Shown here piece after piece: positions 12,081 through 41,519 of a DNA stretch of 48,381 nt. The DNA is taken from contig SKYG01000123.1 in the NCBI GenBank assembly GCA_007128045.1, positions 1 to 48,381 of the forward strand. Direction: 5' to 3'. The notes below the pieces were generated by a model. That model had not been told where the DNA came from. It did no database searches and saw only the letters and a program-made list of their open reading frames with translations. Position 1 is the stretch's first letter. Every line of letters starts with the position of its first letter. This DNA comes from Bacteroidales bacterium. Its GTDB lineage: Bacteria; Bacteroidota; Bacteroidia; Bacteroidales; UBA7960. A program made the translations under genes and the position numbers.

Positions 12081-12187
12081 GTGTTTATTTTTTTCCCTTT
12101 GACCTTCGACCTTCGACCTTTGACCCCCATGAAAAACAATCATGCGTCTGTGTGTCAAAGTGTTTGTCATGGGTATTTCATGTGTTT
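12081..12187 (-). repeat. About 100-nt start-codon-abutting repeat element, well-conserved copy
   Basis: In gene orientation it reads AAACACATGAAATACCCATGACAAACACTTTGACACACAGACGCATGATTGTTTTTCATGGGGGTCAAAGGTCGAAGGTCGAAGGTCAAAGGGAAAAAAATAAACAC|ATG. It is near-identical to the copies at 31588, 33222 and 35937. Confidence 0.9.
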
Positions 12188-31587: not shown

Positions 31588-31684
31588 CTGTTTATTTTTT
31601 TTCCCTTCGACTTTCGACCTTTGACCCCCATGAAAAACAATCATGTGTCTGTGTGTCAAAGCGTTTATCATGGGCATTTCATGG
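31588..31684 (-). repeat. About 100-nt start-codon-abutting repeat element inside the trp operon (trpE-trpG spacer)
   Basis: In gene orientation it reads CCATGAAATGCCCATGATAAACGCTTTGACACACAGACACATGATTGTTTTTCATGGGGGTCAAAGGTCGAAAGTCGAAGGGAAAAAAAATAAACAG|ATG. Confidence 0.9.
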
Positions 31685-31708: not shown

Positions 31709-33121
31709 TCACAAACTAAATTGTTCTGCCAGCTTTATTGCCTTGCGCAAGGCAGATATTTTTCCGTTTACTTCCTTTAACTCACCCTCTTCACTGGAGT
31801 CGATAACCACACCGGCCCCGGCCTGATAAACAAGTTTCCCACGTTTGCTCATAAAGGAACGTATCATAATGGCATGGTTTAGGCTTCCCCCCAGCCCCAG
31901 TATTCCAATGGCGCCACCATAAAAGCCCCTGGCCGTGCCTTCATAACTATCAATCAGTTGGATGGCTTTGTGTTTTGGTGCGCCAGACAAGGTTCCGGCA
32001 GGAAAGGTGTCGGCAAACAACCGGTAGTTGTTGTTGGTGCGAAACATCTTACCTTTAACGGTCGACACCAGGTGAATAACATGTGAGTATGTATGCACCT
32101 CTCTGAATGTTTCAACAGTTACATCATCAGAATGCTTACTTAAGTCATTGCGCGCCAAGTCAACAAGCATACAATGCTCCGCATTTTCTTTCTCGTTCTT
32201 TAGCAGATCAGCTATCAATGCGGCATCCTCGTCCGGACTACCGGTTCTGATGACTGTTCCGGCTATGGGGTTGATAACAGCTATTCCATCACTGATCCGG
32301 AGTTGGGCTTCGGGTGATGAGCCAAACAGCTTGTAGCTCAAGTAGTCGAAGTAAAAAAGATACGGTGACGGATTGATAGAACGAAGAGCCCGGTAAACAT
32401 TAAATTCGTCGCCGGAAAAGTTCTGTTCGAAGCGGCGTGACAAAACAATTTGAAACACATCTCCTCTGGCGCAGTGCCTGATTCCGTTTCTGACCATTTC
32501 CATAAAACGTTCGTCGCTGACGGGGGTAAATTCTTCACCAGTGGCCATAAACGGGAAGCTGGTTGCATTTCTGTTTGCCAGAAGAGACATTACCTTGGAA
32601 ATCATAGACTTTTCACCTTCGGCAATTAACTCCGTGATGCTTAATGTATTGTTAAAGTGGTTGAAGGCAATAACCACCTGGTACAGGTCATACCTGAGTA
32701 AAGGGATGCGATCAGCATCTGCCTCAGGTGATGTGATATTCACATTGTCGAACAAGCTCACTGCATCGTAAGAGGTATAGCCAAACAATCCAGGCATGGT
32801 CTTTTCGCTGAAGTCACCTTCTATTTTGATGGTTCCAAGATACTGGTCAATCAAATTTGATACGGCATGATACCCTTCGAAAGAAAGATGATCATCTGCC
32901 TGGCCCCTTTTTCTGAGGTAAAAATTGTCTGCACTGGCCTCGAAGCCCATGATGGGAGTCAGACAAATATAGGAGTATGAATCATGCCGGGAGCTGTAGT
33001 CTGAACACTCCAGCAATAAACTCTGCGGAAAAGCATCCCGCAAACGAAGGTATATTCCCACAGGCGTGTATGTGTCTGCCTGCAAATGTATTGTCGTTGC
33101 CTTTAATCTGATATCGTTCAT
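31709..33121 (-). CDS. trpE: Anthranilate synthase component I
   Basis: 470-aa ORF. The chorismate-binding C-terminal domain carries GTLSGAPK and GGAIG motifs. Confidence 0.9.
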   Translation of the reverse strand: MNDIRLKATTIHLQADTYTPVGIYLRLRDAFPQSLLLECSDYSSRHDSYSYICLTPIMGFEASADNFYLRKRGQADDHLSFEGYHAVSNLIDQYLGTIKIEGDFSEKTMPGLFGYTSYDAVSLFDNVNITSPEADADRIPLLRYDLYQVVIAFNHFNNTLSITELIAEGEKSMISKVMSLLANRNATSFPFMATGEEFTPVSDERFMEMVRNGIRHCARGDVFQIVLSRRFEQNFSGDEFNVYRALRSINPSPYLFYFDYLSYKLFGSSPEAQLRISDGIAVINPIAGTVIRTGSPDEDAALIADLLKNEKENAEHCMLVDLARNDLSKHSDDVTVETFREVHTYSHVIHLVSTVKGKMFRTNNNYRLFADTFPAGTLSGAPKHKAIQLIDSYEGTARGFYGGAIGILGLGGSLNHAIMIRSFMSKRGKLVYQAGAGVVIDSSEEGELKEVNGKISALRKAIKLAEQFSL

Positions 33122-33221
33122 GTGTTTATATTTTTTCTTTTGACCTTCGACCTTCGACTTTTGACCCCATGAAATATAATCATCCCCATGTGTGTCAAAA
33201 CGTTTGTCATGGGAATTTCAT
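33122..33221 (-). repeat. Repeat element, trpE-proximal copy (divergent)
   Basis: In gene orientation it reads ATGAAATTCCCATGACAAACGTTTTGACACACATGGGGATGATTATATTTCATGGGGTCAAAAGTCGAAGGTCGAAGGTCAAAAGAAAAAATATAAACAC|ATG. Paired substitutions CTTTGAC>TTTTGAC and GTCAAAG>GTCAAAA are present. Confidence 0.9.
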
Positions 33222-33326
33222 CTGTTTATTTTTTTCCCTTTGACCTTCGACCTTCGACCTTTGACCCCCATGAAAAACAATCATGCGTCTGTGTGTCAAA
33301 GCGTTTGTCATGGGTATTTCATGTGT
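33222..33326 (-). repeat. Repeat element, trpE-distal copy (consensus-like), in tandem with the proximal copy
   Basis: It is essentially identical to the copies at 12081-12187 and 35937-36043. Confidence 0.9.
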
Positions 33327-33345
33327 ATATAATTTGCTATAACAG

Positions 33346-33379
33346 CAAGAGCCCACTTAACATGTTAAGCGGGCTCTTG
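33346..33379 (-). terminator. Candidate trp attenuator hairpin (15-bp stem)
   Basis: On the minus strand it reads CAAGAGCCCGCTTAA-CATG-TTAAGTGGGCTCTTG, with one G-U pair. It lies 31 nt downstream of the Trp-leader stop. The trailing CUGUUAU is only moderately U-rich. Confidence 0.55.
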
Positions 33380-33410
33380 TATCAGTTAATATCTAATGAA
33401 AGTAGCTGTA

Positions 33411-33485
33411 TTATAGACCTGAACGCTTAACAACATTGCTGTCGCTGCGCCACCACCAAAAGAATACAGTACTTAAACGGCTCAT
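33411..33485 (-). CDS. trpL: trp operon leader peptide (24 aa, three consecutive Trp codons)
   Basis: ATG 33485 to TAA 33413-33411 gives MSRLSTVFFWWWRSDSNVVKRSGL. TGG TGG TGG lies at 33458-33450. It is not in the ORF track because it is shorter than 60 aa. It lies upstream of trpE on the same strand and is followed by a hairpin with an alternative pairing partner inside the peptide coding region. Confidence 0.75.
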   Translation of the reverse strand: MSRLSTVFFWWWRSDSNVVKRSGL

Positions 33486-33506
33486 TTCTTTGTTCATTTA
33501 CGAATA

Positions 33507-33540
33507 CAATATTACATATTTTTTTTCAGACATCCACAAA
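33507..33540 (-). promoter_or_regulatory. Candidate promoter for the trp leader and operon
   Basis: On the minus strand, TTTG (33540-33537), a 22-nt spacer, and TAATATTG (33514-33507). The -7 box ends about 21 nt before the leader ATG. The spacer is 1 nt longer than the usual 19-21. Confidence 0.35.
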
Positions 33541-33575
33541 CATTTGTTTAATTTTTTTGAATTATTTTTTCAATG

Positions 33576-33607
33576 TTTGTTTTTTAACAAAAAAAAGACT
33601 AATATTG
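33576..33607 (+). promoter_or_regulatory. Candidate promoter for the phe/tyr leader and the pheA operon
   Basis: TTTG (33576-33579), a 20-nt spacer, and TAATATTG (33600-33607). It has one mismatch to TAnnTTTG. The leader ATG lies 29 nt downstream. Confidence 0.4.
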
Positions 33608-33636
33608 CAGTCGATTTTACAACAATACCGATAGTT

Positions 33637-33699
33637 ATGAAATTATTCACTGCTTTTTTTAGCTTTTACTTTTACTTCTTTAGCAACAAAGGGGCGTGA
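33637..33699 (+). CDS. Phe/Tyr-rich leader peptide (20 aa)
   Basis: ATG 33637 to TGA 33697-33699 gives MKLFTAFFSFYFYFFSNKGA, with 7 Phe and 2 Tyr in residues 4-15. It is the C-terminal part of the spurious 87-aa tracked ORF 33436-33699. It is followed by a canonical intrinsic terminator immediately before pheA. Confidence 0.8.
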   Translation: MKLFTAFFSFYFYFFSNKGA

Positions 33700-33742
33700 A
33701 ATTGTGTGTGTTAATTGAAAAAATAAAATACATAAAGAACCA

Positions 33743-33769
33743 GGCCCCGCGATTGCGGGGTTTTTTTTT
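33743..33769 (+). terminator. Intrinsic terminator (attenuator) 9 nt upstream of the pheA start
   Basis: The stem is CCCCGC (33745-33750) with GCGGGG (33755-33760) and the loop is GATT. It is followed by T9 (33761-33769). The pheA ATG is at 33778. Confidence 0.8.
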
Positions 33770-33777
33770 GACTATAT

Positions 33778-34632
33778 ATGACGAAGAAAATTGCGATACA
33801 AGGTATCCGGGGCGCATTCCATCATGAGGCTGCCGCTCTGTATTACAAGAGCCAATTTGACATCTGCGAATGCATGACTTTTCACCACCTTATCGAAGCT
33901 GTTGAGGCAGGCGATGCAGATATAGGTGTGATGGCCATTGAAAACTCTATGGTAGGCAGCATGTTGCCCAACCTTGCCCTGATACGCAAATCAACCCTGC
34001 ATATCGTGGGAGAGGTATATATGCGTATCTCCCAAAATCTGATGGCATTGCCGGGAGAAAGCATCCAAACCTTGCAGGAAGTGCATTCGCATCCGATGGC
34101 CATCATGCAATGCGAAAGCTTTTTTCATAACCTTCAGGATATTAGGATGGTTGAGTCTGTCGACACGGCACTAAGTGCTAAAGAGATCAGCGAGAACCAA
34201 TTAAAAGGTATTGGCGCCATTGCCAGTGAAGCAGCTGCAAAGATCTACGGCCTTGACATTCTGGCGCCATCCATAGAAACAAATAAAAAGAACTACACCC
34301 GGTTTCTTATACTGGGACACAACGGAAACTCAATTGATCCGGCTATCCCGGTCAAGGCAAGCGTGGCATTTGTAGCTCCGCACCTGCCCGGCAGCCTGGC
34401 AGCCGTTTTACAACCCCTGGCAGAGGCAGGTGTAAACCTAAGCATGGTGCAATCACTGCCATTGATTGGCGCCAACTGGGAATATATTTTTCATGCCGAC
34501 ATGATCTTTCAAAATATTGCTTCCGCAAGAAACATCATCAATGACCTGCGAAAAAAGCTACAGGCAACATGGGTGATGGGCATCTACCCATCCAGTCCTG
34601 AAATTCAAGACAACACCAAAATGAAATTGTAA
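33778..34632 (+). CDS. pheA: Prephenate dehydratase (PDT domain plus C-terminal ACT domain)
   Basis: 284-aa ORF. IAIQGIRGAFHHEAA, TRF(L)ILG and ACT-region motifs are present. There is no chorismate mutase domain. Confidence 0.85.
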   Translation: MTKKIAIQGIRGAFHHEAAALYYKSQFDICECMTFHHLIEAVEAGDADIGVMAIENSMVGSMLPNLALIRKSTLHIVGEVYMRISQNLMALPGESIQTLQEVHSHPMAIMQCESFFHNLQDIRMVESVDTALSAKEISENQLKGIGAIASEAAAKIYGLDILAPSIETNKKNYTRFLILGHNGNSIDPAIPVKASVAFVAPHLPGSLAAVLQPLAEAGVNLSMVQSLPLIGANWEYIFHADMIFQNIASARNIINDLRKKLQATWVMGIYPSSPEIQDNTKMKL

Positions 34633-35792
34633 TGATACAAACAGCCGACAGGATAAGCTCTGTGCAGGAATACTATTTTTCGCGAAAGCTCAAAGAGGTA
34701 GAACTCATGAGAAAAGCCGGAGCCAATGTTATAAACCTGGGCATTGGCAGCCCCGACCTGGCACCATCAGAGCAGACCATCAGCAAGCTTGTCGAACAAA
34801 GCAGACTAGACCATAACCATGGCTATCAATCATATGTTGGGATACCGGAACTCCGCACCGCCTTTGCCATGTGGTACCTCAGGTACTTTATGGTAAACCT
34901 GAATCCTGCCAATGAGATCCTGCCACTAATTGGCTCTAAGGAAGGCATCTTTCATATTTCCATGGCTTTCGTCAATCCCGGGGAAGAAGTGCTCATTCCC
35001 AACCCAGGGTATCCCACCTATGAGTCTGCGACAAGGCTGGTAGGCGGAAAGGTGCGGCATTATAACCTGAGCGCTGACTCAGGGTGGTATCCAAACCTCT
35101 ATGAGCTCGAAAAGCAGGATCTGAGCAAGGTAAAACTGATGTGGATCAACTATCCCCATATGCCTACAGGCACAAGGGCTTCGCAGCAAGTATTCAATGA
35201 CATAATCGGTTTTGGCATAAGAAACAATATCCTGATCTGTAACGACAACCCATATAGCTTTATCCTTAACGACAAACCCATCAGTCTGCTTACCGCCAAC
35301 CATGCCAAACAGGTTGGACTGGAGCTGAACTCTTTAAGCAAGTCGCACAATATGGCAGGATGGCGTGTCGGTATGGTGGCAGGACATCATGAGTTTATTA
35401 ACGCCATCCTGAAAGTAAAAAGCAATATGGATTCAGGGATGTTCAAGCCACTTCAGTTAGCCGCTGTTGAAGCACTGAAGAGTCCATCATCATGGTACGA
35501 ACAAATCAACAAAAAATACATGGAGAGAAGGCTGATTGCTTTTGATATCATGAAAACACTGAGATGTTCATACGACCCAGATCAAACGGGAATGTTCGTT
35601 TGGGCAAAGATACCTTCAGTATACCGCGACTCAACAGAGCTGACCGACAAGCTCCTGAATGAAGCGCACGTGTTTATTACCCCTGGGATTATCTTTGGTT
35701 CTAATGGAAAAGATTATATACGCATATCGCTCTGTAGCAACAAAGAATTGTTGCTTGAATCAAAAAACAGAATCATTGAATTTCTAAAATAA
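34632..35792 (+). CDS. Class I/II PLP-dependent aminotransferase (probable aromatic/prephenate aminotransferase)
   Basis: 386-aa ORF. NPGYPTY, NPYS and the PLP-lysine motif SLSKSHNMAGWRVG are present. Its start overlaps the pheA stop (TAATG). The context is between pheA and tyrA. Confidence 0.8.
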   Translation: MIQTADRISSVQEYYFSRKLKEVELMRKAGANVINLGIGSPDLAPSEQTISKLVEQSRLDHNHGYQSYVGIPELRTAFAMWYLRYFMVNLNPANEILPLIGSKEGIFHISMAFVNPGEEVLIPNPGYPTYESATRLVGGKVRHYNLSADSGWYPNLYELEKQDLSKVKLMWINYPHMPTGTRASQQVFNDIIGFGIRNNILICNDNPYSFILNDKPISLLTANHAKQVGLELNSLSKSHNMAGWRVGMVAGHHEFINAILKVKSNMDSGMFKPLQLAAVEALKSPSSWYEQINKKYMERRLIAFDIMKTLRCSYDPDQTGMFVWAKIPSVYRDSTELTDKLLNEAHVFITPGIIFGSNGKDYIRISLCSNKELLLESKNRIIEFLK

Positions 35793-35813: not shown

Positions 35814-35936
35814 TCAACATGTTTGACACACCGGCGCATGCTGACAGGCACCGGGTGAGATCCCGAACATGCGTTCGGGACTTCGCTTCGCTCAGCTGTT
35901 CGACATTCAGACTTTCAGACATTTTGACTAAAAAAT
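35814..35936 (+). repeat. Degenerate upstream copy of the start-codon-abutting element
   Basis: It retains CATGTTTGACACACCGGCGCATG, then an 8-bp hairpin TCCCGAAC-ATGC-GTTCGGGA, then CATTCAGA/CTTTCAGA octamers and an A-rich end. Confidence 0.6.
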
Positions 35937-36043
35937 AAACACATGAAATACCCATGACAAACGCTTTGACACACAGACGCATGATTGTTTTTCATGGGGG
36001 TCAAAGGTCGAAGGTCGAAGGTCAAAGGGAAAAAAATAAACAC
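35937..36043 (+). repeat. About 100-nt start-codon-abutting repeat element (reference copy)
   Basis: AAACACATGAAATACCCATGACAAACGCTTTGACACACAGACGCATGATTGTTTTTCATGGGGGTCAAAGGTCGAAGGTCGAAGGTCAAAGGGAAAAAAATAAACAC|ATG (tyrA start at 36044). Confidence 0.9.
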
Positions 36044-36889
36044 ATGAATATTTGTATTGTAGGTATCGGTTTAATCGGGGGATCTATAGCCATTGATTTG
36101 CGCAATAGGGGTTTTGCAAAACAGATCATCGGTGTTGACAGCAATCCGCACCACGCCACCATCGCGAAGCACAGTAAGTTGGTTGACGATATAGACACCC
36201 TGGAGAATGGGATAGAAAGGTCAGACCTCATCATCCTGTCAACCCCCATTGACTCTATCAAAAAACTACTTCCCAGAGCATTGGATTCTGTAACAGGAAC
36301 CAAAAAAGTCATTACCGATATGGGATCTACCAAAGGTGGGATGAGTAGTCTGGTAGAAAATCATCCAAACAGAAAAAACTATGTTGCCGCACATCCTATG
36401 GCCGGGACAGAATATTCCGGACCACTTGCCGCCATCGGCAAACTGTTCGACTATAAATGCGCCATCATATGCGACAAGGAGAAAAGTAGTCCGCAAGCTT
36501 TAAAGGTGGTGAAAAAAATGTTTGATGTTCTGAACATGAAGGTAATTTACATGAATGCCAATGAGCACGATGTAAGTGCAGCCTATGTATCACACATCTC
36601 CCATATTTCGTCATTTGCCCTGTCGTTATGCGTACTGGAAAAGGAAAAGGATCAAAAACGTATACTAAGCCTGGCCAGTGGTGGGTTTGCCTCTACCGTG
36701 AGGCTGGCCAAAAGTTCGGCTGACATGTGGACGCCGGTATTTGAACAAAATTCGATGTATGTACTTGAAGTGTTAGACACCTATATCGAAAAATTGAAGA
36801 TGTTTAAAGCCTATATCGAAAGCAACAACCAGAAAGGCATAACCGATCTTATATTGGAAGCAAATAAAATTCAGAAAATACTTAACTAA
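36044..36889 (+). CDS. tyrA: Prephenate dehydrogenase
   Basis: Start called at ATG 36044, giving MNICIVGIGLIGGSIA (a Rossmann GxGxxG right at the N-terminus). AHPMAG motif. The 30 upstream in-frame codons are repeat-element sequence. Confidence 0.85.
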   Translation: MNICIVGIGLIGGSIAIDLRNRGFAKQIIGVDSNPHHATIAKHSKLVDDIDTLENGIERSDLIILSTPIDSIKKLLPRALDSVTGTKKVITDMGSTKGGMSSLVENHPNRKNYVAAHPMAGTEYSGPLAAIGKLFDYKCAIICDKEKSSPQALKVVKKMFDVLNMKVIYMNANEHDVSAAYVSHISHISSFALSLCVLEKEKDQKRILSLASGGFASTVRLAKSSADMWTPVFEQNSMYVLEVLDTYIEKLKMFKAYIESNNQKGITDLILEANKIQKILN

Positions 36890-36916: not shown

Positions 36917-38005
36917 ATGAAAAACCTGGCCCCTATTCTTCCCATTGAGAACTGGGAAAATTATAAACAACGCCCGCTCGTTATTGCAGGACCCTGCAGC
37001 GCTGAAACAGAAAAGCAGGTGTTGCAAACAGCCATCGAAATAGCAGAAAGTAAAAAAGTAGATATTTTCAGGGCAGGGCTCTGGAAGCCAAGGACAAGAC
37101 CCGGAACCTTCGAAGGTGTGGGAAGTGTCGGGTTGCCCTGGCTGAAAAGGGTCAAGGAAGAAACGGGCTTGCCTGTTGCTACAGAGGTGGCAAACGCCAA
37201 ACATGCTTATGAAGCACTGAAGTATGGTATCGACTATATCTGGATAGGAGCACGTACAGCCGTCAATCCTTTCGCCGTGCAGGAAATTGCCGACTCATTG
37301 GAAGGGTCAAACGTGGGTGTTATGATCAAAAATCCTATAAATCCAGACCTGGACCTGTGGATGGGCGGTATAGAACGCATCCGAAAAGCAGGAATCTCAA
37401 AGATTGCGGCCATACACCGCGGATTCTCCAACTATGAGAAAACCCAATACAGAAACATCCCCCACTGGCAGCTGGCCGTAGAGCTGAAACAACTGATGCC
37501 CGATTTGCCCGTAATTTGCGACCCAAGTCATATTACAGGCGACTCATCCCTGCTGTATGAAGTTTCCCAAAAAGCGATGGACCTGAACTATGAAGGGCTG
37601 ATGATAGAAACACATATTGACCCCGAGCATGCATTGAGCGATGCCGCACAACAGGTCACCCCCAACGAACTAAAGGAAATACTCAGCAGACTCATTATGA
37701 GAAGTCCGGTTTCGAGCGATAAAGGATTTCTCGATGTGCTGGGCGAGCTGAGAAGCCAGATAGACCTGTTCGACGACCAACTGCTGAATATACTGGAACA
37801 ACGGATGAACGTGGCAAAGACCATCGCCAAGTATAAGAAGGAAAACAATATCACCATCCTTCAAACCAAACGGTGGACAGAGATCATCAAAAAGAGTATT
37901 GCCAAAGGAGAACAGAAAGGACTGAGCAGCGAGTTTATCGACACATTGTTCAAAGCCATTCACCAGGAGTCAATCAACCACCAGACCAAGATAATGAACG
38001 AATAA
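36917..38005 (+). CDS. Bifunctional DAHP synthase (type I-beta) / chorismate mutase (C-terminal AroQ domain)
   Basis: 362-aa ORF. The N-terminal 260 aa are DAH7PS-like (GPCSAE...KPRTRPGTFEG...CDPSH). The C-terminal about 90 aa are AroQ-like (LRSQIDLFDDQLLNILEQRMNVAKTIAKYK...). This fusion type is described for Porphyromonas and Prevotella. Confidence 0.85.
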   Translation: MKNLAPILPIENWENYKQRPLVIAGPCSAETEKQVLQTAIEIAESKKVDIFRAGLWKPRTRPGTFEGVGSVGLPWLKRVKEETGLPVATEVANAKHAYEALKYGIDYIWIGARTAVNPFAVQEIADSLEGSNVGVMIKNPINPDLDLWMGGIERIRKAGISKIAAIHRGFSNYEKTQYRNIPHWQLAVELKQLMPDLPVICDPSHITGDSSLLYEVSQKAMDLNYEGLMIETHIDPEHALSDAAQQVTPNELKEILSRLIMRSPVSSDKGFLDVLGELRSQIDLFDDQLLNILEQRMNVAKTIAKYKKENNITILQTKRWTEIIKKSIAKGEQKGLSSEFIDTLFKAIHQESINHQTKIMNE

Positions 38006-38112: not shown

Positions 38113-39135
38113 ATGGAAAGAATTCCTGTAAAAGGACAATTTACCGAGAGTGTAGTTTTGGTGGGCGAAAGTCTTCATAATCTGAAGGAACATTTGCCTG
38201 CTCAAAAAGTGTTTGTAATTACCGACCAAAACATCCATCGTCTCCATGGCCGATCGTGGGACATGTACCCCTGTTATACCCTGGAGGCGGGTGAAAAAAG
38301 TAAGGTGCTGGAGATGGCAGGGTCAATATACCGGTGGTTGATACGCAATGATGCAGACCGTCGCTCATTCATTCTTGCCGTTGGAGGTGGCATGGTTTGC
38401 GACCTTGCAGGCTTTGTAGCTTCCACATTCATGCGTGGCCTGGAGTTTGGGTTTGTGGCTACCTCGCTGCTGGCACAGGTCGATGCCAGCGTGGGCGGAA
38501 AAAATGGTGTCAATATTGATGGATATAAAAATATCGTAGGCACCTTTAACCAACCAAAATTTGTAATCTGCGACACCAACTCCCTGCAAACACTCCCAAC
38601 AAAAGAGTTAAAAAACGGGTTGGCCGAAGTAGTAAAACATGCACTGATCGCTGACGCCGATATGTTTGAACGTATAGAAAACAATTTGTCAGCAATTCTT
38701 GACCTGAACCCTGATATAATCAATTACCTGGTGTCACGCTCCGTACATATAAAAGCCGGCGTTGTAACACGCGATGAACGGGAAACAGGCCTCCGCCGCG
38801 TATTGAACCTGGGCCATACCTGGGGCCATGCAGTAGAAAAAACCGATGGTATTTCGCATGGACAGGCTGTAAGTATAGGTCTGGCCTTCGCCGCTGATCT
38901 GTCAGTAACAAAATCCTACCTAAAGAAGCACGAACGCGACAGACTTGTTCAGTTGTTGCAAAACCTCGGACTCCCTGTAGATACCCAAACACCCCGCAAC
39001 GTGATCTTCGATGCATTGCTGAAAGATAAAAAGAAGGAAGAAGGAATCATGCACTTTGTACTGATGAAAGGCATAGGCGACGTTGTAATAGAGCCTATTC
39101 CAATTCAGGAACTTCGTGAGTTTGCCTGCCTTTAA
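38113..39135 (+). CDS. aroB: 3-dehydroquinate synthase
   Basis: 340-aa ORF. GGGMVCDLAGF, the DASVGGKNG(V)N nucleotide/metal motifs and HTWGHA are present. Confidence 0.9.
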   Translation: MERIPVKGQFTESVVLVGESLHNLKEHLPAQKVFVITDQNIHRLHGRSWDMYPCYTLEAGEKSKVLEMAGSIYRWLIRNDADRRSFILAVGGGMVCDLAGFVASTFMRGLEFGFVATSLLAQVDASVGGKNGVNIDGYKNIVGTFNQPKFVICDTNSLQTLPTKELKNGLAEVVKHALIADADMFERIENNLSAILDLNPDIINYLVSRSVHIKAGVVTRDERETGLRRVLNLGHTWGHAVEKTDGISHGQAVSIGLAFAADLSVTKSYLKKHERDRLVQLLQNLGLPVDTQTPRNVIFDALLKDKKKEEGIMHFVLMKGIGDVVIEPIPIQELREFACL

Positions 39136-39217: not shown

Positions 39218-40462
39218 ATGCAATATGTCGCACATCCATCTTCTGTAAATGGCCGGTTACTGGCTCCCGCATCGAAAAGTGCCGCCCAGCGGGCTATTGC
39301 CATTGCATCCCTGGCAGAAGGAACGTCAGTAATTGTACGTCCTGGCAGCTGCGATGATGTGCAGGCTGCCGTCAGTGTATGCAAACAGCTAGGGGTACAT
39401 ATTGAAGAACATGATCACCAGATGCATATTACCGGCGGCATCAGACCACCCGGTAATGAGCTGAATTGCGGTGAATCAGGCCTGGGAATACGGATGTTTT
39501 CAGGGGTTGCTGCCACACTTAACGAAGAAATAGTACTTACTGGAAAAGGCAGCCTCATGAACAGACCTATGTCGATGGTCGAACAGTCTTTACTCGCCAT
39601 GGGCGTATCATGCCAGACAACTGGGGGGCGGCTGCCCATCTTCATTAAAGGCCCATTTCCGGGAGGCGCTGCTACTATCGATGGATCTCAAAGTTCACAA
39701 GTACTCACAGGCATACTAATCGCCTCACCCATGGCAAACAGCGATGTGGTGTTATCCGTCAATGACCTGAAAAGCCGTGAGTATGTCGACATTACCACCC
39801 GAATCATGAAGCTTTTCGGTGTCAACGTCACCAATAACAATTACAAAGAATTTATTATCCCATCAAGACAACGATATAAAGCCACACAATACCGCGTTGA
39901 AGGCGACTGGAGTGGTGCTTCCTTTCTGTTGGTAGCAGGAGCCATAGCCGGGCAGATATCCATTGAAAACCTGGATTTGTCATCCGCCCAGCCAGATCGT
40001 AAAATTATGGAAGCACTTCAGGATGCAGGAGCCATATGTATAACAGATAATAACACGGTAGAAGTAAAAAAAGGAACAACAGCATTGCAAGCCTTTTCTT
40101 TCGATGCAACACATTGCCCCGACCTATTTCCACCCCTGGCGGCACTGGCAGCCAACTGCAAAGGCAAATCCAGCATCCTGGGTGTTAGCCGTCTGAAATC
40201 AAAGGAAAGCGACAGGGCAGCTACCATCATGGATACATTCGGAAAACTGGGATTAGATATTTCATTGGATAGAGATGCCATGATCATATCAGGTGGTCAG
40301 ATAAAAGGAGCAGACATTCACTCTCACGGCGACCACCGCATCGCCATGGCCGGAGCTATTGCCGCACTGAATGCTGACAGAAAGGTAACTATCGGACATG
40401 CCGATGCCGTAAATAAATCATATCCTGAGTTTTATAAAGACCTGGAAAGCATAACCTCATAA
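39218..40462 (+). CDS. aroA: 3-phosphoshikimate 1-carboxyvinyltransferase (EPSP synthase)
   Basis: 414-aa ORF. LAPASKSAAQRA (KS..R motif), ESDR and HGDHRIAMA motifs are present. Confidence 0.9.
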   Translation: MQYVAHPSSVNGRLLAPASKSAAQRAIAIASLAEGTSVIVRPGSCDDVQAAVSVCKQLGVHIEEHDHQMHITGGIRPPGNELNCGESGLGIRMFSGVAATLNEEIVLTGKGSLMNRPMSMVEQSLLAMGVSCQTTGGRLPIFIKGPFPGGAATIDGSQSSQVLTGILIASPMANSDVVLSVNDLKSREYVDITTRIMKLFGVNVTNNNYKEFIIPSRQRYKATQYRVEGDWSGASFLLVAGAIAGQISIENLDLSSAQPDRKIMEALQDAGAICITDNNTVEVKKGTTALQAFSFDATHCPDLFPPLAALAANCKGKSSILGVSRLKSKESDRAATIMDTFGKLGLDISLDRDAMIISGGQIKGADIHSHGDHRIAMAGAIAALNADRKVTIGHADAVNKSYPEFYKDLESITS

Positions 40463-40535: not shown

Positions 40536-41519
40536 ATGAACACATTCGGACGAACATACAGGATACATATCTTCGGCGAGTCGCACGGACCACTGGTAGG
40601 AATCACCATCGATGGTTGTCCGCCGGGACTCCCACTAACAGAAGACGATTTTATGGCTGACCTGGAACGCAGAAAGGCAGGGGCTGTAGGAACCACTCCG
40701 CGAAAAGAAGACGACCTCCCGGAAATCGTCACCGGCTGTTTCAACGGGTTTACCACCGGGGCACCACTAACCATTCAGTTTGCCAATAAGAATGTTCGTT
40801 CTGGCGATTACTCCAACCTTATAAAAACGCCAAGGCCAGGGCATTCTGACTTTGTAGCATATAAGCGTTTTGAAGGATTTAACGACCACAGGGGCGGTGG
40901 CCACTTCTCCGGGAGGCTCACCCTGGCACTGGTAGCTGCAGGCGTTGTGGCAAAAAAATTGATCTCACCTGTGGCCATACAAGCCAGGCTGATACAAGCC
41001 GGGGGCAATCCAAATATTGAAGAAGCCGTAAAAAATGCCCTCGAAGCAGGTGACTCTGTTGGAGGCCTGGTTGAATGCAAGGCAAACAACATCCCCTTGG
41101 GATGGGGTGAGCCATTATTTGATTCAGTAGAGTCGGTGATCGCTCACCTGGCATTTGCGGTACCGGCCATCAAAGGGATAGAGTTCGGATCGGGCTTTGC
41201 CGCAGCCGGCATGAAGGGCAGTCAGCACAACGACCCGATACTCGACGACAGCGGTAAAACAGCCAGTAACAATGCAGGCGGGATCACTGGCGGACTGACC
41301 AACGGCAATGAACTGATTTTTAGGGTTGCAGTAAAACCTACCTCCAGCATATCTGTAAAACAGTCGACATTCAGTCTGGAATCAGGAAAAGTCGAAGAGC
41401 TTGAGGTAAAAGGCAGGCACGACGCCTGCATTGCGCTACGTGTTCCGGTTGTCATTGAAGCCATTACAGCCATAGCACTAGCCGACCTCAAGATGCACAT
41501 GCAAGCCAGAATAATATAA
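40536..41519 (+). CDS. aroC: Chorismate synthase
   Basis: 327-aa ORF. FGESHG, RPGHSD and GGGHFSGR motifs are present. Confidence 0.9.
   Translation: MNTFGRTYRIHIFGESHGPLVGITIDGCPPGLPLTEDDFMADLERRKAGAVGTTPRKEDDLPEIVTGCFNGFTTGAPLTIQFANKNVRSGDYSNLIKTPRPGHSDFVAYKRFEGFNDHRGGGHFSGRLTLALVAAGVVAKKLISPVAIQARLIQAGGNPNIEEAVKNALEAGDSVGGLVECKANNIPLGWGEPLFDSVESVIAHLAFAVPAIKGIEFGSGFAAAGMKGSQHNDPILDDSGKTASNNAGGITGGLTNGNELIFRVAVKPTSSISVKQSTFSLESGKVEELEVKGRHDACIALRVPVVIEAITAIALADLKMHMQARII

Follow-up and report, generated by a model that had tools for sequence, protein, structure and literature searches.

A probable Phe- and Tyr-sensing transcription attenuator upstream of pheA in an uncultured Bacteroidales lineage

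The window, by which we mean the whole stretch of 48,381 nucleotides analysed here, carries a run of aromatic amino-acid biosynthesis genes on its plus strand which begins with pheA (33778–34632), encoding a 284-aa prephenate dehydratase (Pfam PDT, 3.9e-55, plus ACT). This is followed by a class I/II aminotransferase gene (34632–35792), the prephenate dehydrogenase gene tyrA (36044–36889), a fusion gene for DAHP synthase and chorismate mutase (36917–38005), aroB (38113–39135), aroA (39218–40462) and aroC (40536–41519), all assigned from Pfam. An earlier reading of the letters without database searches (hereafter the sequence-only reading) had placed tyrA downstream of pheA, and the domains PDH_N and PDH_C were both found there. 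The shared strand and short gaps suggest that pheA to aroC, through 41519, form one presumed operon with pheA as the first regulated gene, and the genes span the Phe branch, the Tyr branch and the common shikimate pathway. The upstream neighbours are all on the minus strand and comprise the divergent trp genes trpE (33121–31709), trpG, trpD, trpC and trpF.

In the spacer between trpE and pheA (33122–33777) lies a short leader ORF of 20 codons on the plus strand (33637–33699 with its stop; ATG at 33637, TGA at 33697–33699), encoding MKLFTAFFSFYFYFFSNKGA, which was recognised from the ORF list and its conservation in relatives. Residues 4–15 hold seven Phe and two Tyr, the F/Y codons taken to be regulatory lying at 33646–33681, and the coordinates and residue counts given for this ORF by the sequence-only reading were exact. 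The peptide was said to be masked by an 87-aa ORF with a TTG start (33436–33699), which is indeed present in the program-made ORF list; the longer call conceals the 20-aa leader, and this annotation artefact is corrected here. Among the 1022 mini-ORFs in the window (ATG start, 8–45 aa, both strands), the leader ORF alone has more than six F/Y in any 12 residues, its nine F/Y in 12 codons providing the cluster of pathway end-product codons characteristic of a classical attenuator. The spacer is T-rich (34% G+C, 37.5% T), and a F/Y score of nine was reached in two of 2000 dinucleotide-preserving shuffles of it. The clustering is not chance. A spacer of this composition does make Phe codons common, which, with the two equalling shuffles, is what could be said for the reading that a F-rich ATG frame merely sits beside an ordinary terminator or a transcript-stabilising hairpin, with no sensing at all; the terminator and the related loci described below bear on this reading.

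Downstream of the leader ORF is a terminator hairpin (AGGCCCCGC-GAUU-GCGGGGUUU, 33742–33763, plus strand) with nine pairs, six of them G-C, a loop of 4 nt and a predicted energy of −14.7 kcal/mol. Its 5′ arm (33742–33750) together with C33741 constitutes segment 3 (33741–33750), which can pair with either segment 2 (see below) or segment 4. From the sequence and hairpin prediction, segment 4 (33755–33769) comprises the 3′ arm (33755–33763) and the T9 tract that it overlaps (33761–33769). The GC hairpin with T9 ending at 33769, just before the pheA ATG, had been proposed by the sequence-only reading, and this 9-bp stem and T9 provide an intrinsic terminator between leader ORF and pheA, as in a classical attenuator. 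The gap between the T-run and the pheA ATG (33778) is only 8 nt, hence pheA has no space for a promoter of its own and must be transcribed by polymerase that reads through from the leader promoter. Furthermore, the plus-strand terminator cannot belong to a preceding gene, as there is no plus-strand gene upstream, and the lack of an upstream gene in need of a terminator counts against coincidence.

A putative Bacteroidota-type promoter was located on the plus strand at 33576–33607, with a −33 element TTTG (33576–33579), a 20-nt spacer and a −7 box TAATATTG (33600–33607). The Bacteroides promoter consensus is −33 TTTG and −7 TAnnTTTG, and the −7 box has one mismatch to the latter. L001, the closest relative, shares the −7 box together with the following bases (TAATATTGCAGTCG), and an exact TAnnTTTG is present up to 70 nt upstream in 30 of 101 related leaders, peaking 16–25 nt before the leader ATG. 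A promoter at this site is plausible and would place the transcription start at about 33613. The 5′ end of such a transcript (33613–33644, plus strand) could also fold into a weak hairpin rich in A-U pairs (GAUUUUA/UGAAAUU), within which the leader AUG lies.

The terminator competes in the predicted structures with two further helices, both of which involve the end of the leader ORF. Segment 2 (AAAGGGGCGUGAA, 33688–33700, plus strand) comprises the last sense codons and the stop, and its core (33691–33698) is the 5′ strand of an antiterminator. Here GGGGCGTG (33691–33698) opposes CAGGCCCC (33741–33748) through four G-C pairs, a C-G pair, a G.G mismatch, a U-A pair and a G-C pair; the sequence-only reading had proposed that the stop-codon segment pairs with the 5′ arm of the terminator, and its base pairs were confirmed, including the one mismatch. 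The resulting helix 2:3 joins GGGGCGUG of segment 2 to segment 3, and is mutually exclusive with the terminator. With seven pairs and the mismatch, the outer 2:3 helix is weaker in the window than in, for example, L001, where there are nine perfect pairs. Constrained folding and the nascent-transcript MFE structure place an inner hairpin (GUGUGUGU... with ...AUACAUAA, 33705–33734, plus strand) within the antiterminator helix. Pairing of the U-rich codons with the A-rich stretch at 33714–33737, as in a Phe_leader-style alignment, was considered and rejected, because MFE folds put this stretch in the inner hairpin.

In the MFE structures without a ribosome, segment 2 pairs instead with segment 1 (UUCAC-U-GCUUUUUU, 33646–33659, plus strand), which covers codons F4 to F8. 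This helix 1:2 (33646–33659 with 33688–33700) has 13 pairs, including three G-U and five A-U, and at −10.6 kcal/mol is the weakest of the three in the window, helix 2:3 with its inner hairpin having −18.3 and helix 3:4 −14.7 kcal/mol. Folding of the leader RNA had been suggested as a check in the sequence-only reading, and predicted the terminator, the antiterminator and also helix 1:2. The latter had been overlooked in the original proposal of a simple ribosome-occludable antiterminator, of which the pairing 2:3 (which covaries, see below) and the occlusion geometry in silico both stood, but not the simplicity, as the leader has more than two states. As helix 1:2 is present and covarying, the leader has the full classical 1:2 / 2:3 / 3:4 design, with pairing and covariation as the evidence for 1:2 and kinetic trapping of this helix as an assumption.

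When the full-length leader was folded at equilibrium, the terminator won at every ribosome position (P(3:4) of at least 0.85), hence the choice of fold must be kinetic. The choice is likewise kinetic in the E. coli trp attenuator. Because full-length equilibrium folding with ribosome masks cannot discriminate between ribosome positions, we folded a nascent transcript that stops short of the 3′ arm, with a ribosome mask from −15 to +12 nt, counted from the first base of the A-site codon. In this model, P(2:3) was ~1 for A-site codons up to F15 (0.79 at F15 itself), 0.006 at S16 and ~0 from N17 to the stop. The last regulatory codon is therefore exactly at the boundary beyond which the modelled ribosome occludes segment 2, a result that depends on the +12 nt assumed for the downstream reach of the footprint. 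With this footprint, the position of the ribosome decides the fold in silico. The same tendency was predicted across 98 leaders, where sequestration of the terminator 5′ arm was 0.76 with a stall at F/Y codons vs 0.50 with a ribosome at the stop (Wilcoxon p = 9e-15).

In the growing untranslated transcript, helix 1:2 was predicted to form earliest (P = 0.6–0.8 up to position 33738), 2:3 took over once segment 3 was out (P = 0.99), and 1:2 together with 3:4 won once segment 4 was out (P(3:4) = 0.96). At equilibrium the nascent untranslated transcript is predicted to favour 2:3 over 1:2, hence termination without translation needs 1:2 to be kinetically trapped. These energies lend some credit to a two-state switch, which would need nothing but the terminator and the stop-codon segment: segment 2 would be occluded by a ribosome at the stop, a ribosome anywhere upstream would permit antitermination, and helix 1:2 would be functionless here. 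Helix 1:2 is, after all, the weakest helix in the window, with its G-U and A-U pairs, and is outcompeted by 2:3 at equilibrium in the nascent transcript, but it is also the first helix predicted to appear during transcript growth, and the related leaders speak further to its role.

We compared the locus with 80 others from Bacteroidota, whose PheA is 42–62% identical to that of the window; most derive from Bacteroidales, Marinilabiliales and Saprospiraceae MAGs, together with cultured Carboxylicivirga and Ancylomarina. A comparative search for F-rich mini-ORFs 5′ of pheA, also suggested by the sequence-only reading, returned the same layout in most of these loci: about 75 of the 80 have a F/Y-rich mini-ORF in the 450 nt that precede pheA, and for 98 of 101 such mini-ORFs a stable hairpin with a T-run comes next. 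Examples of the peptides are MNSTFVTYFYFYFYFFSDKGVW (L001), MHNNSANTFFYFYFYFFGKIE (L004) and MKLFSNAFFYFYFYFISIE (L025). At least three F and at least two Y are found in 95 of the 98 related leaders, while peptide sequence outside the F/Y run is unconserved. Downstream, most loci have the DAHP synthase/chorismate mutase gene, and often an aminotransferase gene and tyrA. Trp codons also occur within the F/Y run in 32 of the 98 related leaders (e.g. FYFWFFYY, FFYFFW), which hints from the sequences that a single leader may respond to Phe, Tyr and Trp in some lineages; the leader in the window is without a Trp codon. Many relatives carry tandem F/Y leader-terminator units 5′ of pheA, where the window has one, for example at L001:2656–2792 and 2810–2958, at L062:2677–2820 and 2844–2986, in L007 to L011, and in L071, L072 and L076.

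The terminator stems vary from locus to locus (GCCCCGC, GUCCCAA, CCCGCCUC, GCCUCGC and GGGUCUUC), and the segments at or just after the stop codon vary to match (in the same order GGGGC, UUGGGA, GAGGUGGG, GCGAGGU and GAAGAC). This gives 2:3 pairs such as GGGGUCUGG/CCAGACCCC in L001, GGGGCUUGG/CCAGGCCCC in L003, AUUGGGA/UCCCAAU in L025 and GAGGUGGG/CCCGCCUC in L046, with a U-A pair of L001 swapped for C-G in L003. The offset of segment 2 from the stop codon varies across loci (−15 to +20 nt) and MAFFT fails to align this segment, hence cross-locus permutation tests were used for 2:3 in place of per-column covariation. For duplexes of the terminator 5′ arm with the sequence surrounding the stop codon, the own-locus mean energy was −12.6 vs a cross-locus mean of −8.5 kcal/mol over 98 leaders, and none of 5000 permutations of the locus labels was as good. 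Helix 1:2 gave the same result in the 98 leaders, with means of −12.7 vs −9.4 kcal/mol and 0 of 5000 permutations as good, and is often longer in relatives, with a near-perfect ACAAACAAAUCC/GGAUUUGUUUGU in L070.

Covariation of 1:2, and its long near-perfect form in several relatives such as L070, argue against a two-state switch, which we regard as improbable. Coincidence is left with a very small chance by the recurrence of ORF and terminator 5′ of pheA in most of the 80 loci, despite the low PheA identity, and by the covariation of two alternative helices.

A covariance model built from 30 related loci with the window excluded (R1) matched the window at 33628–33769 on the plus strand with 72.9 bits (E = 5.8e-11), the sole window match below E = 0.7. 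Over 81 sources, R1 gave 91 matches at E <= 0.01, among which the window ranks 17th; 89 share the strand of pheA, and where the locus coordinates are of the usual kind the match ends just 5′ of pheA. Cultured Carboxylicivirga and Ancylomarina contribute matches to this set (L046, L074 and L055). This placement is relevant to whether the leader is an independent small gene, encoding a F/Y-rich hydrophobic micropeptide or a small RNA that acts in trans, while pheA is controlled otherwise, for example by a protein regulator. Stable short RNAs can build up from leader transcripts, and one leader peptide at least, peTrpL of Sinorhizobium meliloti, is reported to function in trans (PMC7298713). Against this, the peptide here is unconserved outside the F/Y run, the element lies directly 5′ of pheA with its strand kept in nearly all R1 matches, and a separate pheA promoter has no space; a trans role would moreover add to a cis role rather than replace it. 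We consider an independent gene very unlikely, and favour control of pheA in cis by the attenuator.

Rfam release 15 has no family at the gathering threshold in the window or in 20 related loci. Phe_leader (RF01859) aligns over its full length to 33636–33769 with 34.4 bits (E = 0.0012), below the gathering threshold of 55 bits, hence the element is not a Phe_leader member by the Rfam criterion. The layout of that family, a Phe-rich leader ORF followed by a terminator 5′ of pheA, is nevertheless found here. Searches of 33000–34200 at E up to 10 gave no match to a T-box leader or to the Lactococcus Leu/phe leader (RF01743), and Bacteroid-trp (RF01692) matched neither there at E up to 10 nor in the window at gathering. 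Like the E. coli pheA attenuator (pheL; RF01859), the leader has a Phe-rich peptide, three alternative helices and a terminator just before pheA. The E. coli pheL leader uses Phe codons only, whereas the leader in the window mixes Phe and Tyr codons, and E. coli pheA is a single-gene unit, whereas the operon here covers Phe, Tyr and common pathway genes.

Attenuators responding to several amino acids are known from E. coli, where the thr (Thr/Ile) and ilvGMEDA (Leu/Val/Ile) leaders are multivalent. F/Y uORFs adjoining shikimate genes appear in the legend of Fig. 6b of Stav et al. 2019 (PMC6429828). As far as that legend goes, these uORFs and the E. coli leaders resemble the element in combining codons for more than one pathway end product in one leader; they differ in amino acids and taxa, and the comparison is one of design. 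Bacteroid-trp and the Lactococcus Leu/phe leader were both described by Weinberg et al. 2010 (PMC2864571). The former is a leader-peptide attenuator family of the same phylum and of the sister aromatic pathway, but has Trp codons and lies upstream of trpE.

A close counterpart is the pheA-aspC3 leader of Flavobacterium psychrophilum (THC0290_N_0195), for which the start site was mapped and read-through was seen to depend on conditions (Guerin et al. 2021, PMC9723704, Table S7, SI D9). This lends indirect support to the prediction that read-through in the window would rise when Phe or Tyr is limiting. The authors term the element leader peptide attenuation and note that it has no Rfam hit (PMC9723704). 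It belongs to the same phylum and lies directly 5′ of pheA and then an aminotransferase gene, with a mixed F/Y ORF (MNTNNTFYSNNSFYFYWNIGRDCYMVI), a hairpin and a T-run, and a G-rich segment near the ORF end that complements the terminator 5′ arm (GGGAUUGU/ACAAUCCC). The two leaders look homologous in layout and complementarity. The F. psychrophilum leader differs in coming from Flavobacteriia rather than Bacteroidia and in its peptide, which is 27 aa long with a Trp codon and fewer F/Y, and the operon in the window is longer, adding tyrA, DAHP synthase/chorismate mutase, aroB, aroA and aroC. The kind of element described here is textbook and has already been noticed in Bacteroidota, yet it is uncurated. 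Bacteroidetes pheA attenuators may already be listed by Vitreschak et al. 2004 (PubMed 15135544).

Two other features were observed in the window. The divergent trpE operon has a candidate trp attenuator of its own on the minus strand of the same spacer (33497–33345), with a leader ORF MNKEMSRLSTVFFWWWRSDSNVVKRSGL (33497–33411) of 28 aa and three consecutive Trp codons (WWW), and a strong hairpin (33380–33345) with a poor U-tract, GCUGUUAU. Near the ORF end, GUUAAGCG (33431–33424) complements CGCUUAAC in the hairpin 5′ arm (33371–33364), the same antiterminator logic as in the pheA leader. The second feature is a dispersed repeat of 85–120 nt, with copies up to 97% identical, found on the minus strand adjoining trpE (two tandem copies, 33138–33222 and 33239–33323) and trpG (31599–31683), on the plus strand adjoining tyrA (35930–36048), and on the minus strand adjoining an unrelated flavodoxin-like gene (~12082–12180). 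The repeat is always oriented along transcription, ends exactly at the start codon of each of these genes, holds four GGTCRAA heptads (GGTCAAAGGTCGAAGGTCGAAGGTCAAAGG) and yields spurious N-terminal extensions (MTNALTHRRMIVFHGGQRSKVEG...) in ORF calls. The repeat may represent a MITE-like element or else a portable 5′-UTR cassette; a role as an aromatic-pathway regulator was rejected, as the copy before the flavodoxin-like gene argues against it.

Taken with the modelling, the sequence elements and their conservation indicate that the pheA leader is very probably a classical ribosome-mediated transcription attenuator sensing charged tRNA-Phe and tRNA-Tyr. Transcription would start at around 33613, and the leader ORF (33637–33699) would be translated as RNA polymerase advances. 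With Phe and Tyr plentiful, the ribosome would reach the stop codon and cover segment 2 (33688–33700), allowing 3:4 to pair, so that the hairpin and U9 would end the transcript at about 33769 and pheA would stay untranscribed. Were Phe-tRNA or Tyr-tRNA scarce, the ribosome would stall on one of the nine F/Y codons (33646–33681), holding segment 1 and freeing segment 2, and GGGGCGUG of segment 2 would then pair with CAGGCCCC of segment 3 before segment 4 is made. No terminator would form, and polymerase would continue into pheA and the six genes after it, as far as aroC. In the absence of any translation, 1:2 would pair and the terminator would form. As a mechanism, this adds nothing past the classical Yanofsky model.

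The analysis provides a probable mode of regulation for the 7.7-kb operon for aromatic amino acids of this uncultured Bacteroidales lineage, for which the closest PheA found was 62% identical. It also provides a seed for an RNA family, with 30 aligned leaders, 91 matches, and evidence on both alternative helices and on tandem attenuators. To our knowledge, Shine-Dalgarno-led initiation is largely absent from Bacteroidota. We see an even chance that the element belongs to a phylum-wide Bacteroidota family of dual Phe/Tyr attenuators, some with Trp codons and with tandem units in many lineages. With only 8 nt between terminator and pheA start codon in the window, the hairpin might in addition control translation of pheA. 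We know of little study of transcription-translation coupling in Bacteroidota; if such a family is real, then once curated it would be a natural reporter of this coupling across the phylum.
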